A DNA stretch of 64,000 nucleotides from Minisyncoccia bacterium (GTDB taxonomy: Bacteria; Patescibacteriota; Minisyncoccia; 2-02-FULL-40-12; IGHO2-01-FULL-4-A): positions 16,127-80,126 of the forward strand of contig JBEKBN010000003.1 of the NCBI GenBank assembly GCA_050015375.1, written 5' to 3'. Under the pieces are notes generated by a model. That model made no database searches and was not told the origin of the DNA. It saw only the letters and a program-made list of their open reading frames with translations. A program made the translations under genes and the position numbers. Below, in pieces: positions 8,959 through 56,685 of the stretch; the first letter of the stretch is position 1, and every line of letters begins with the position of its first letter.

Positions 8959-9030
8959 GCCTTTGTAGCTCAACGGCCAGAGCACGCCTCTGAAAAGGGC
9001 GGGAAAGAGGTTCAACTCCTCTCAAAGGCA
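8959..9030 (+). tRNA. tRNA-Phe (GAA)
   Basis: Acceptor GCCTTTG/CAAAGGC, D-arm GCTC..GAGC, anticodon stem CGCCT/GGGCG with loop CTGAAAA, T-arm AGAGG-TTCAACT-CCTCT. 72 nt, CCA not encoded. Confidence 0.85.
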
Positions 9031-9033
9031 CAC

Positions 9034-9106
9034 GCCCTCGTAGCTCAATGGACAGAGCGGGACGCTTCTATCGTCAAGGTTGCAGGTTCAAGTCCTGCCG
9101 AGGGCA
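9034..9106 (+). tRNA. tRNA-Arg (UCU)
   Basis: Acceptor GCCCTCG/CGAGGGC, D-arm GCTC..GAGC, anticodon loop CTTCTAT with a G-A mismatch at 27-43, T-arm GCAGG-TTCAAGT-CCTGC. Confidence 0.75.
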
Positions 9107-9341
9107 CTCTAATAAAATAATAAAATTGGACTCATACCAAAATCATAGCGGTATGTTACAAGGAGAAGACATTAGCCAAAATGGACATCTGGGGATAACT
9201 ATTTTGTTGGTAATTATGTCTCGTTTAGTATAAAATATAGGATAGCAATACTTCGTGATTTTTGTTCTATTTTTATGTGGGACATTGACATTTTTTATTC
9301 TCTTGCTAAATTAAAGCACTATTAGTTTAATGTAAGATATT

Positions 9342-54936: not shown

Positions 54937-55010
54937 GCCGGAGTAGCTCAACGGTAGAGCAGCACTTTTGTAAAGTGAAGGCTTGTCGGGTTCGAATCCC
55001 ACCTCCGGCT
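54937..55010 (+). tRNA. tRNA-Thr (UGU), with aberrant T-stem (1-nt bulge) and a 27-43 mismatch
   Basis: Acceptor GCCGGAG/CTCCGGC, D-arm GCTC-AACGGTA-GAGC, anticodon loop TTTGTAA. T-arm gtCggg-ttcgaat-cccac needs a bulged C. Confidence 0.6.
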
Positions 55011-55011
55011 C

Positions 55012-55656
55012 ATGTCTTACGATTTTTATAAATCCGAAGATTATAGACAAAGACAAAGTATATTAACAAAACTAAATTGGCAGAAAGGAGTTTTTGATCA
55101 TCGGATAAGGAATGAAAAGAGAATTTGTAAACGAAGGGGATGCCATAAAGTATTCTATGCCAAACCTAGCAATCCCAAAGTTTTTTGTTCCATATCCTGC
55201 GCTGCAATATACAATAATACAGGGCGGATTCGACGCAGAATAACTTATTGCTTAAATTGCAACAAAAAAACTCCACGCTCTGGCTATAAATATTGTAGTA
55301 ATGCGTGCCAAATCGGTTTTCAATACAAAACATACATTCAAAAATGGAAAGAAGGCAAAAAGAATGGATTAAACGAAAGTATCGGAGTCGTAAATAAGTA
55401 TGTTAAAAGATATTTAAGAGAAAAATATAAAAATGAATGTTGTTTGTGTGGTTGGTCACAAATAAATCCAAGAACAAATACAATTCCCTTATCAGCTGAT
55501 CATATAGATGGAAATTGGCGGAATAATCGAGAAGAAAATTTAAGATTACTTTGTCCAAATTGTGATTCTTTAACTCCAACCTATAAGAACCTAAATAAAG
55601 GTAGAGGAAGGAATATTAGATTGCTTGGACTAAAGAAAGTGAGTAAGTTAGTATAA
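55012..55656 (+). CDS. HNH endonuclease (free-standing, inserted within tRNA cluster)
   Basis: CCLCGW...ADHIDGNWRNNREENLRLLCPNCD HNH/Zn motif, plus N-terminal CxxC pairs. Starts 2 nt after the tRNA-Thr end. Confidence 0.75.
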   Translation: MSYDFYKSEDYRQRQSILTKLNWQKGVFDHRIRNEKRICKRRGCHKVFYAKPSNPKVFCSISCAAIYNNTGRIRRRITYCLNCNKKTPRSGYKYCSNACQIGFQYKTYIQKWKEGKKNGLNESIGVVNKYVKRYLREKYKNECCLCGWSQINPRTNTIPLSADHIDGNWRNNREENLRLLCPNCDSLTPTYKNLNKGRGRNIRLLGLKKVSKLV

Positions 55657-55670
55657 ATTTTATCAAATTT

Positions 55671-55753
55671 GGGCGGTTGGGTGAGTAGCAATACCAGCGC
55701 GCTGTAAACGCGCCGACCATCGGTCTTCGGGGGTGCAAGTCCCTCACCGCCCA
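55671..55753 (+). tRNA. tRNA-Tyr (GUA), class II with long variable arm. Unusual T-loop (TGCAAGT)
   Basis: Acceptor GGGCGGT/ACCGCCC, anticodon stem GCGCG/CGCGC with loop CTGTAAA, variable arm gacc-atc-ggtc, T-stem GGGGG/CCCTC. Confidence 0.6.
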
Positions 55754-55790
55754 CAAGAAATTTATATTATAACAACAGATGACATGATTA

Positions 55791-55862
55791 GCCGGGGTAG
55801 TTCAGTGGCAGAACGCTTTCTTGGTAAGAAAGAAGTCGTGAGTTCGATTCTCACCTCCGGCT
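55791..55862 (+). tRNA. tRNA-Thr (GGU)
   Basis: Acceptor GCCGGGG/CTCCGGC (one G-U), D GTTC/GAAC, anticodon stem CTTTC/GAAAG with loop TTGGTAA, T-arm GTGAG-TTCGATT-CTCAC. Confidence 0.85.
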
Positions 55863-55903
55863 CAGTAATTATTTGCAATTATAAATTTTCGATGATCATT
55901 TAT

Positions 55904-55933
55904 TTGAAAATTGAAAATTGAAAATTGAAAATT
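55904..55933. repeat. 4.3 x 7-nt tandem repeat TTGAAAA
   Basis: ttgaaaattgaaaattgaaaattgaaaatt, upstream of rpmG. Confidence 0.8.
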
Positions 55934-55939
55934 ATATTC

Positions 55940-56104
55940 ATGTCACAAGACAGCTTGATAAAATTAAGATGTTCAGTGTGTAAGAAGGGGATGAGCTTTA
56001 CAACAAAGAACAAGAAGTTGGTTACAAGAAAATTGGAATATAAAAAATATTGCAATGTTTGTCGGAAGCATAATCTATTTAAAGAAGTAAAACTCACCGC
56101 TTAG
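55940..56104 (+). CDS. rpmG: ribosomal protein L33 (zinc-ribbon form)
   Basis: MSQDSLIKLRCSVCKKGMSFTTKNKKLVTRKLEYKKYCNVCRKHNLFKEVKLTA. 54 aa, below the track cutoff. Confidence 0.85.
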   Translation: MSQDSLIKLRCSVCKKGMSFTTKNKKLVTRKLEYKKYCNVCRKHNLFKEVKLTA

Positions 56105-56113
56105 GTGAGCATC

Positions 56114-56149
56114 GGGGGCGTCGTTCAGTGGCAGGACGCTGGTCTCCAA
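56114..56149 (+). pseudogene. orphan 5' half of a canonical-type tRNA-Trp (acceptor, D-arm, anticodon stem, loop up to CTCCAA)
   Basis: gggggcgtcgttcagtggcaggacgctggtctccaa resembles typical bacterial tRNA-Trp 5' halves but has no complementary 3' half downstream. It shares only ggtctccaa with the intact tRNA-Trp 18 bp away. Confidence 0.6.
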
Positions 56150-56167
56150 TCCCATCACATTCAAAAT

Positions 56168-56238
56168 GGGGATGTCGGTTAACGGCAAACCAACGGTCTC
56201 CAAAACCGTGACTGTAGGTTCGATTCCTACCATCCCCG
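56168..56238 (+). tRNA. tRNA-Trp (CCA)
   Basis: Acceptor GGGGATG/CATCCCC, D GGTT/AACC, anticodon stem ACGGT/ACCGT with loop CTCCAAA, T-arm GTAGG-TTCGATT-CCTAC. Confidence 0.85.
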
Positions 56239-56256
56239 CGTTAAGAATGTGAGGGA

Positions 56257-56361
56257 CGATTCCTTGCGCCCCCGCAAAATCAAAAACAGCCCTGCGGCTG
56301 TTTTTGATTTGAGGAGCAAGGAATCGAACGTCGGAGCGATATTTCGTTAGAAGACGAAATC
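56257..56361 (+). other. nested long hairpins downstream of tRNA-Trp (possible terminator / element-end structure)
   Basis: Outer cgattccttgc/gcaaggaatcg and inner aaaatcaaaaacagcc-ctgc-ggctgtttttgatttg. A second hairpin cgatatttcg...cgaaatcg. Confidence 0.4.
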
Positions 56362-56490: not shown

Positions 56491-56685
56491 TTATTTATTA
56501 ATGTTCACACTCACTTCGATTCTCTTCATGAGGTTTTCAACATCCTCAACTTTATAAAGCCGGTAGTTATTCACAGGGTTGCGGAATGCAACAAGCCGCC
56601 CTTTTTTGTCCCAATTGCGGACTGTCAAGGGCGTAACACCGAAAATTTTTGCGACTTCATTAACGGACAAATATCTCTTTGGCAT
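56491..56685 (-). CDS. excisionase/MerR-like helix-turn-helix DNA-binding protein
   Basis: YLSVNEVAKIFGVTPLTVRNWDKKGRLVAFRNPVNNYRLYKVEDV HTH_17-like. Confidence 0.55.
   Translation of the reverse strand: MPKRYLSVNEVAKIFGVTPLTVRNWDKKGRLVAFRNPVNNYRLYKVEDVENLMKRIEVSVNINK

Follow-up and report, generated by a model that had tools for sequence, protein, structure and literature searches.

Bacteriophage T4 encodes SegB, a free-standing GIY-YIG endonuclease whose gene lies among tRNA genes and which biases the inheritance of the tRNA region (PMC2330249, PMC2988022); its site is 27 bp centred on the T-arm motif GGTTCRANTCC (PMC2330249). The tRNA cluster of phage T5 contains the HNH endonucleases F-TflI and F-TflII along with F-TflIV (hegA, hegC and hegD; Akulenko 2004, cited in PMC2330249), and the correspondence between F-Tfl and heg names could be traced only for hegE, which is F-TflV. 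Here we describe an open reading frame (ORF) at positions 55012-55656 of a 64,000-nucleotide stretch of a Minisyncoccia bacterium (Patescibacteria; GenBank assembly GCA_050015375.1, contig JBEKBN010000003.1, positions 16,127 to 80,126), referred to below as the window. The ORF lies between the genes for tRNA-Thr(UGU) and tRNA-Tyr. With a probability of about 70%, we read it as a free-standing HNH gene of homing-endonuclease type, belonging to a clade that adjoins tRNA genes, and its neighbour tRNA-Thr(UGU) as a working tRNA whose oddities are inherited. Judged by sequence, the partner of the clade is tRNA-Thr in Patescibacteria and tRNA-Thr together with other tRNAs in phages. The putative enzyme is thus of a known kind, the tRNA-cluster homing endonucleases (T4 SegB, the T5 HNH enzymes), and what is new is a bacterial member bound to tRNA-Thr. 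With this finding, the range of tRNA-cluster homing-endonuclease genes, known experimentally from T4 and T5, would come to include chromosomes of ultrasmall Patescibacteria, where one nuclease lineage would be tied almost exclusively to tRNA-Thr genes.

The HNH gene and its insertion site

The features of the insertion are as follows, in window positions.
54937-55010, + strand: tRNA-Thr(UGU), 74 nucleotides (nt) to the discriminator U73, with C74 at 55011 and CCA not encoded
55012-55656, + strand: putative HNH endonuclease ORF, 214 amino acids (aa), ABR875_01430 (ORF list, PHROG, AlphaFold2 model)
55012-55320, + strand: N-terminal module of the protein, aa 1-103, a putative DNA-binding or targeting domain (alignments)
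55438-55566, + strand: predicted HNH (beta-beta-alpha-metal) core, aa 143-185, CxxC...DH...N...CPNC (alignment of 38 homologues, model)
55657-55670, + strand: spacer of 14 nt from the HNH stop codon to tRNA-Tyr (direct reading)
55671-55753, + strand: tRNA-Tyr(GUA), right boundary of the insertion (ARAGORN, as 55671-55754; Rfam, 48.2 bits)

The local gene order is rpmE (on the minus strand), rpsB, tsf, a TPR protein gene, tRNA-Thr(UGU), the HNH ORF, tRNA-Tyr, tRNA-Thr(GGU), rpmG (L33) and tRNA-Trp. A preliminary description made from the letters of the stretch had placed an HNH gene between tRNA-Thr(UGU) and tRNA-Tyr, beginning 2 nt after the former, and both points hold: the ORF is the only long one there, and its ATG at 55012 follows directly on C74 (discriminator U73 at 55010). 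The insertion is a lone 645-nt ORF ending 14 nt before tRNA-Tyr, and no target-site duplications or inverted repeats were found around it save for the 3' ends that the two tRNA-Thr genes have in common. A contig scan with an EF-Ts alignment returned 80 loci across many phyla, of which only three (L011, L012 and L014) were informative; loci are given by L numbers throughout. The nearest relative, L011 (EF-Ts 73%, S2 71% and TPR protein 55% identical), lacks the HNH gene and so allows the comparison that the preliminary description had suggested: its cluster consists of tRNA-Thr(UGU), a 12-nt spacer and tRNA-Tyr with no ORF between. The 14-nt spacer of the window ends in aaattt, matching the end of the spacer at this empty site.

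The HNH ORF is compositionally foreign. Its G+C content is 31.9% overall and 23.7% at third codon positions vs 43-48% and 48-58%, respectively, in rpsB, tsf and the TPR gene, and among 645-nt windows it ranks in the bottom 1.7%. In five relatives too, the HNH gene lies below its flanks in G+C content.

An identical protein is present in public assemblies as NCBI ABR875_01430, "hypothetical protein", from a Minisyncoccia metagenome-assembled genome. The ORF has 1318 homologues, some labelled HNH endonuclease by NCBI, and matches HNH families of PHROG (E values of 7e-21, 1e-15 and 4e-13). Residues C143, C146, H164, N172, N176, C181, N183 and C184 are invariant in 38 homologues and D163 nearly so, and two CxxC pairs (C143/C146 and C181/C184) flank the HNH motif in the arrangement of a structural zinc site. 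The AlphaFold2 model (mean predicted local distance difference test score, pLDDT, 79.9) places a beta-beta-alpha fold at residues 161-185, with strands at 161-164 and 177-180 and a helix at 182-185, and Foldseek found local matches in the PDB to the HNH domains of Cap5, McrA and Cas9. A sequence search of the PDB gave no meaningful relative, its sole match being MDA5 (E = 0.21), and no GIY-YIG domain was matched in the ORF. By motif and model, the product is a putative nuclease of the HNH superfamily, its sequence divergent from the curated HNH models and its motif complete. A link to Zorya was considered and rejected, the match to NCBIfam ZorE scoring only 14.7 bits vs a cut-off of 600.

In the N-terminal module, a conserved M-S-Y-x-F-Y..S..Y..QS helix is followed by two C-x2/4-C...(F/Y)CSxxC zinc-finger-like motifs, and weak fold matches were obtained to the YacG, DotN and MYND zinc fingers. 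The module has no Pfam family, only a sub-threshold zf-CGNR match, and the window protein itself has no NUMOD match.

A homing-type insertion is supported because the L011 site is empty, the gene is foreign in G+C content, the family is specific for tRNA-Thr, its proteins are modular and its phage homologues lie beside tRNAs. In the mechanism proposed, the protein would recognise the DNA of the tRNA-Thr gene or its flank, a sequence that tRNA function would keep invariant; it would cut alleles lacking the HNH gene, and recombinational repair would copy the gene in. The gene would be transcribed with the tRNA operon, its mRNA becoming essentially leaderless once the tRNA 3' end is cleaved.

Association with tRNA-Thr genes and exchange of nuclease domains

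A metagenome scan with the N-terminal module recovered 80 loci with 56 distinct N-termini. At 37 of these 56 a tRNA-Thr gene ends within 100 nt upstream, and four loci abut a tRNA-Thr(GGU) gene downstream. Eight further loci, taken at first as exceptions with no tRNA upstream, were struck from that class, since in each a tRNA-Thr(UGU) is present upstream, missed by ARAGORN and having D- and T-loops of non-canonical form. Adjacency to tRNA-Thr was thereby found at 49 of 51 informative loci with the N-terminal domain.

A short-form HNH protein of about 150 aa, with over 1000 homologues in Patescibacteria, is encoded immediately 5' of tRNA-Thr(CGU) in all six independent contexts.
L012, 7325-7723: short-form HNH ORF
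L174 and L176-L180, 2501-2956/2971: short-form HNH ORF
Its stop codon lies inside the tRNA gene in five of the six (TAG at positions 8-10, or in the D-loop); the exception is L012/L094, where the ORF stops 3 nt before tRNA-Thr(CGU). The same tRNA gene occurs with the short form in L012 and L174-L180 and without it in L004, L006 and L173. No paper on tRNA-Thr-linked nucleases in Patescibacteria was found in a literature coverage that is incomplete, and novelty is thus unproven.

Among GenBank phage homologues, 8 of the 11 examined lie at most 76 nt from a tRNA-Thr gene: those of Tequintavirus HdH2, Sugarlandvirus vB_Kpn_B01, the jumbo phages GAP32, XbC2 and WPEC5, Streptomyces phage Jada, Enterococcus phage iF6 and an Ochrobactrum phage. 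In HdH2, gp177 is located between the T5.059 homologue and tRNA-Thr, where T5 has only 10 nt. Of 35 distinct homologues in IMG/VR, 24 have a tRNA gene on the same strand no more than 200 nt away, and many abut tRNA-Ser(UGA), tRNA-Lys or tRNA-Thr.

HNH is carried by only a minority of the proteins with the N-terminal module, most of which have a C-terminal domain resembling T7 endonuclease I (Pfam Phage_endo_I, weak matches). This fusion is found in L014 (7344-8123) and in most of L091-L170, and sits 3' of tRNA-Thr(UGU), the same site as the HNH gene. The module is also joined to NUMOD3 and HNH_repeat modules, NUMOD3 scoring above threshold in L096 and L127, and truncated copies of the family are present in L093, L109, L111, L112, L133, L137, L153-L155 and L167. 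Domain shuffling and decay as read from these sequences would be typical of homing endonucleases, and the family offers a compact natural case of nuclease-domain exchange on a fixed targeting module.

Vertical descent, the T-arm and rival explanations

Several observations weigh against the reading given above. Among close relatives there is a single clean empty site, and the 64 kb in view allow for a second tRNA-Thr(UGU) copy elsewhere in the genome. The Pfam HNH_3 model scores the ORF below its curated cut-off (20.0 vs 24.8 bits), and the Foldseek search of the PDB returned no match to the whole protein. A Shine-Dalgarno motif (GGAG, GAGG or AGGA 4-20 nt upstream of the first start) precedes only 4 of 47 long ORFs, a crude count in which some starts may be wrong; translation initiation in this genome seems largely Shine-Dalgarno-independent, and the missing ribosome-binding site of the HNH gene is not distinctive because the genome is generally poor in such motifs. 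Most directly, the identity of HNH orthologues (52-63%) runs parallel to EF-Ts and S2 identity (52-61%), the values for HNH, EF-Ts and S2 being 63%, 61% and 60% in L004, 61%, 56% and 61% in L173, and 52%, 52% and 57% in L006. On this comparison, an old vertical resident under purifying selection fits at least as well as ongoing homing would. Orthologue pairs are either at most 72% identical or else identical, so that synonymous sites are saturated.

Mosaic tRNA alleles hint at co-conversion. In L172 the mosaic cluster occupies 214-415 with its tRNA genes adjacent; its tRNA-Thr(CGU) matches that of L004 exactly and has 25 differences from that of L092, and its tRNA-Thr(UGU) matches that of L092 exactly, with 19 differences from that of L004. 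Between L006 and L012, tRNA-Tyr shows 4 differences and tRNA-Thr(UGU) 23. Ordinary recombination and chimeric assembly are alternatives, and a further point against our reading is that these alleles rest in part on a 1.3-kb metagenomic contig that is possibly chimeric.

These data bear on the rival that survives best, possible though unlikely, in which a former homing endonuclease has been domesticated as a vertically inherited host gene that no longer homes. Its role could be the exclusion of DNA from related strains, DNA repair or a function linked to tRNA-Thr. Besides the divergence that tracks S2 and EF-Ts, all ten orthologues (45-72% identity) are intact ORFs with every catalytic and zinc residue, and the order rpsB-tsf-TPR-tRNA-HNH-tRNA-Tyr is kept in L004, L006-L010, L012 and L173. 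Domestication fits poorly, however, with the absence of the gene from the closest relative L011, the persistence of its low G+C content, the truncated copies in the family, the presence/absence polymorphism among phage homologues, and the lack of conserved partner genes besides the tRNA.

The state of tRNA-Thr(UGU) turns on its T-arm, set out here with the second tRNA-Thr gene.
54985-55002, + strand: T-arm of tRNA-Thr(UGU), GTCGGG/TTCGAAT/CCCAC, with a bulged C at 54987 (Infernal, ARAGORN, RNAfold)
55791-55862, + strand: tRNA-Thr(GGU), canonical (ARAGORN, as 55791-55863; Infernal, 66.8 bits; RNAfold)

Scored by Infernal against Rfam RF00005 (gathering score 29 bits), tRNA-Thr(UGU) reaches 54.3 bits (E = 3e-10), a normal score for a gene whose T-stem the preliminary description had called defective; ARAGORN calls it at 54937-55011. 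It has G1-C72, C2-G71, G18-G19 in the D-loop, U8, U33 and the T-loop TTCGAAT by direct reading, and its acceptor 3' strand is intact. The pairs G1-C72 and C2-G71 are identity elements for threonyl-tRNA synthetase, as established from the E. coli enzyme. As the preliminary description had noted, the T-arm needs a bulged base, position 27:43 is mismatched and the second tRNA-Thr is canonical. Five T-stem pairs are possible only with C54987 out, so the stem is not an uninterrupted one of 5 bp: Infernal places an extra base there, ARAGORN draws only 3 pairs, and the RNAfold minimum-energy structure keeps only three G-C pairs. Position 27:43 is G·A (54962 and 54978), non-canonical according to Infernal. 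The codons ACA and ACG account for 314 of the 14,937 codons of the window, a normal use, and no tRNA-Thr(CGU) was found within it, so a tRNA with a UGU anticodon is needed, barring a copy outside the 64 kb. The tRNA beside the HNH gene is probably a working one.

Both oddities recur in relatives. The bulged-C T-arm GTCGGG/CCCAC is also found in L171, the closest locus by HNH protein (70% identical), and L092 and L172 have GTTGGG/CCCAC, the equal architecture with a bulged U; the HNH proteins of these three loci are 58-70% identical to that of the window. Because the bulge is shared by all three despite 30-40% divergence in the HNH protein, it is, on this comparison, an inherited lineage trait, maintained over long divergence and independent of HNH presence; it has the look of a single pyrimidine added to a GTGGG/CCCAC stem. 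T-stems with perfect pairing (GTCGG/CCGAC or GTGGG/CCCAC) stand beside orthologous HNH genes at the same junction in L004, L006-L010, L173, L012/L094 and L136. At 27:43 a mismatch (A·A, U·U or G·A) is seen again in L004, L006, L171 and L173, and by the same comparison it is a lineage trait, common in the clade and unrelated to the insertion.

One way to connect the T-arm with the nuclease, by analogy with T4 SegB, would make the bulged arm an immunity or escape variant of the enzyme's own recognition site. SegB does recognise T-arm DNA (PMC2330249), and the tRNA-Thr(UGU) genes beside these nucleases in the candidate phyla radiation (CPR) are plastic, with bulges, variable loops of 5-9 nt and UGCAA T-loops. 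The proposal is improbable, given the canonical T-arms at many HNH-bearing loci and an HNH-less L011 tRNA of no recognisably distinct "sensitive" type; moreover, the UGCAA T-loop also occurs in the tRNA-Tyr of the same genomes, and the plasticity may be a general CPR trait. A joint account, combining a tRNA-Thr-specific homing lineage of phages and Patescibacteria, a tRNA-punctuated leaderless mRNA, and T-arm oddities left by an arms race of recognition and escape in a tRNA that still works, is as a whole quite unlikely.

The preliminary description had gone further and proposed a homing-endonuclease-type insertion with damage to, or remodelling of, the 3' region of tRNA-Thr(UGU), which would leave a defective or pseudo-tRNA. 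Its first half stands as our preferred reading; its second half is highly improbable and already contradicted by the comparative sequence data. Both observations that the preliminary description had named as refuting it, a normal tRNA score and an equal T-stem in relatives, were made here, the score with Infernal and Rfam. The T-stem is truly weak, with 3 pairs in ARAGORN and in the RNAfold minimum-energy structure, the Rfam score is 12 bits under that of tRNA-Thr(GGU), and the ORF abuts the tRNA. Yet 24 nt separate the tRNA/ORF junction from the bulge, which is on the T-stem's 5' strand, and the acceptor 3' strand and T-loop are unharmed; relatives conserve the bulge, others have canonical T-stems next to orthologous HNH genes with an identical junction (L004, L006, L173, L012 and L136), 27:43 mismatches are clade-wide, and ACA and ACG are used as normal codons.

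Scarcely credible is a remnant left in the 3' end of the tRNA-Thr gene by an integrase-type mobile element or a genomic island. In its favour, the 3' ends of tRNA genes are classic sites of integration, 23 nt of the tRNA-Thr 3' end recur as a direct repeat 852 nt downstream, and an HTH_17/MerR (excisionase-like) gene is located at 56491-56685. Against it, the repeat is simply part of the second tRNA-Thr gene, whose final 23 nt match the 3' end of tRNA-Thr(UGU) at 91% identity; no integrase is present between the tRNAs or beside them; one ORF makes up the whole insertion, with junctions of 1 nt and 14 nt; the HTH_17 gene is conserved in relatives whatever the HNH details; and the family inserts on either side of tRNA-Thr genes.

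Read as an inherited variant next to a homing-type gene, the odd tRNA-Thr(UGU) would not be collateral damage, and annotation pipelines should not label it a pseudogene. Conservation of the bulged T-stem in a tRNA that appears essential would also be of interest for studies of EF-Tu and T-arm recognition.

Unusual tRNA loops were also observed. In some CPR lineages, tRNA-Thr(UGU) has a D-loop AGAAGUA, without G18-G19, and a T-loop UGCAAAA, without U54-U55-C56. Such genes are present in L138, L145, L151, L154, L160, L161 and L163, all missed by ARAGORN and located about 40-130 nt upstream of the nuclease ORF, and also in L105, L127, L162 and L166. The T-loop of the window tRNA-Tyr is UGCAAGU. 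Read from sequence, these loops point to altered D-loop/T-loop (elbow) interactions in these bacteria.

Expression, neighbouring features and comparison with known systems

In the window and at least 10 relatives, the start codon of the nuclease directly adjoins the 3' end of the tRNA, leaving no space for a leader; an abutting or overlapping start is seen across the family. The distance from tRNA end to ATG is -1 to +3 nt in the window and in L006, L091, L092, L094, L127, L131 and L135, and where CCA is encoded at tRNA-Thr(UGU) (L006, L091, L092 and L135) its final A is the A of the nuclease ATG. Family ORFs share start or stop codons with tRNA ends, hence the recurrent mis-annotated ORFs that read through tRNAs ("...GSNPTSGSM..."); database gene calls often run through the tRNA to give "...VVGSNPTSGSM...". 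Members with a spacer have TATAAT, about 6 nt and ATG, and the short forms of L174, L176 and L177 have TTGAC-17-TATAcT, 6-8 nt and ATG, an arrangement not present in L012/L094. The TATAAT/TATAcT-to-ATG spacing is, as far as sequence can tell, the layout of a leaderless mRNA.

Consensus scans predicted no promoter or + strand terminator from the TPR gene to tRNA-Thr(GGU). The arrangement suggests, as its simplest reading, that the HNH mRNA is co-transcribed with the tRNA and freed leaderless by tRNA 3' processing. In mitochondrial tRNA punctuation, excision of flanking tRNAs releases leaderless mRNAs. The window is alike in its start codon directly at a tRNA 3' end and differs in being part of a bacterial chromosome, in that processing here is inferred, and in that the layout is limited to this gene family at the loci examined. 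If true, this processing-dependent leaderless expression would be a testable bacterial analogue of the mitochondrial system.

Downstream of tRNA-Thr(GGU) and rpmG lies one further tRNA gene of the cluster.
56168-56238: tRNA-Trp (ARAGORN, as 56168-56239; Infernal, 63.3 bits)
A tRNA-Trp gene relic comprising the 5' half, not detected by Rfam, is present at 56114-56149 (GGGGGCGTCGTTCAGTGGCAGGACGCTGGTCTCCAA), 18 nt upstream of this intact and differently sequenced gene, and is nearer to the tRNA-Trp of L004 than to the resident one. The relic suggests that tRNA gene replacement has occurred in the cluster. All six tRNA genes of the window (8959-9107 and 54937-56239) have C74 and none has the full CCA. 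Four tandem copies of TTGAAAA at 55904-55931, just upstream of the rpmG (L33) start at 55940, overlap the best promoter-like matches of the region. A long, near-perfect hairpin at 56256-56327, downstream of tRNA-Trp, is possibly a terminator or a repeat element; a mir-1784 match to it was dismissed as spurious and sub-threshold (22 bits vs 98). About 1 kb downstream of the tRNA cluster, from about 57190, is a giant-protein gene with a Peptidase_S74 domain (4596 aa in the public gene call). In L007 (6760-7146), and also in L006 and L008-L010, a small nuclease ORF of GIY-YIG type (...MKYFVYVLKS...YTGYSEDPVRRLKEHN...) directly follows tRNA-Tyr, so that the tRNA cluster hosts a second kind of nuclease gene; in L006-L010, no tRNA-Thr(GGU) was found by ARAGORN or Rfam between tRNA-Tyr and rpmG.

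Compared with known systems, the family resembles the modular enzymes of NUMOD type (I-TevI, I-HmuI) in joining a small DNA-binding module to interchangeable nuclease domains, and its paralogues at tRNA-Thr sites likewise carry NUMOD3, HNH_repeat or a different, Phage_endo_I-like nuclease; unlike those enzymes, the window gene is not intron-encoded. T4 SegB is the best functional analogue of the proposed enzyme, lying between tRNA genes with a site built on a conserved tRNA motif. It differs in being a phage enzyme of GIY-YIG rather than HNH type, and so not homologous, and in having its own upstream promoter and ribosome-binding site and not abutting a tRNA 3' end. The enzymes of the T5 tRNA cluster are, like the window gene, free-standing HNH ORFs between tRNA genes of the same strand, the ends of ORF and tRNA touching or overlapping. 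The match of T5 hegA to the window protein is confined to the HNH core (58% over 41 aa, E = 4e-12), and hegC, hegD and hegE have no significant match to it. In other T5-like phages, HdH2 gp177 (37% identical, E = 2e-27) and vB_Kpn_B01 gp61 (42%) share with the window protein a zinc-finger and HNH region and both abut tRNA-Thr(UGU), and presence of the gene in HdH2 and its absence from T5 at the same site parallel the occupied and empty sites of the Patescibacteria. These homologues are without the extra N-terminal module of the window protein, and the window gene, known from sequence, lies on a Patescibacteria chromosome. By sequence, T5-like phages, with HNH endonucleases in their tRNA clusters, offer the nearest homologous setting.

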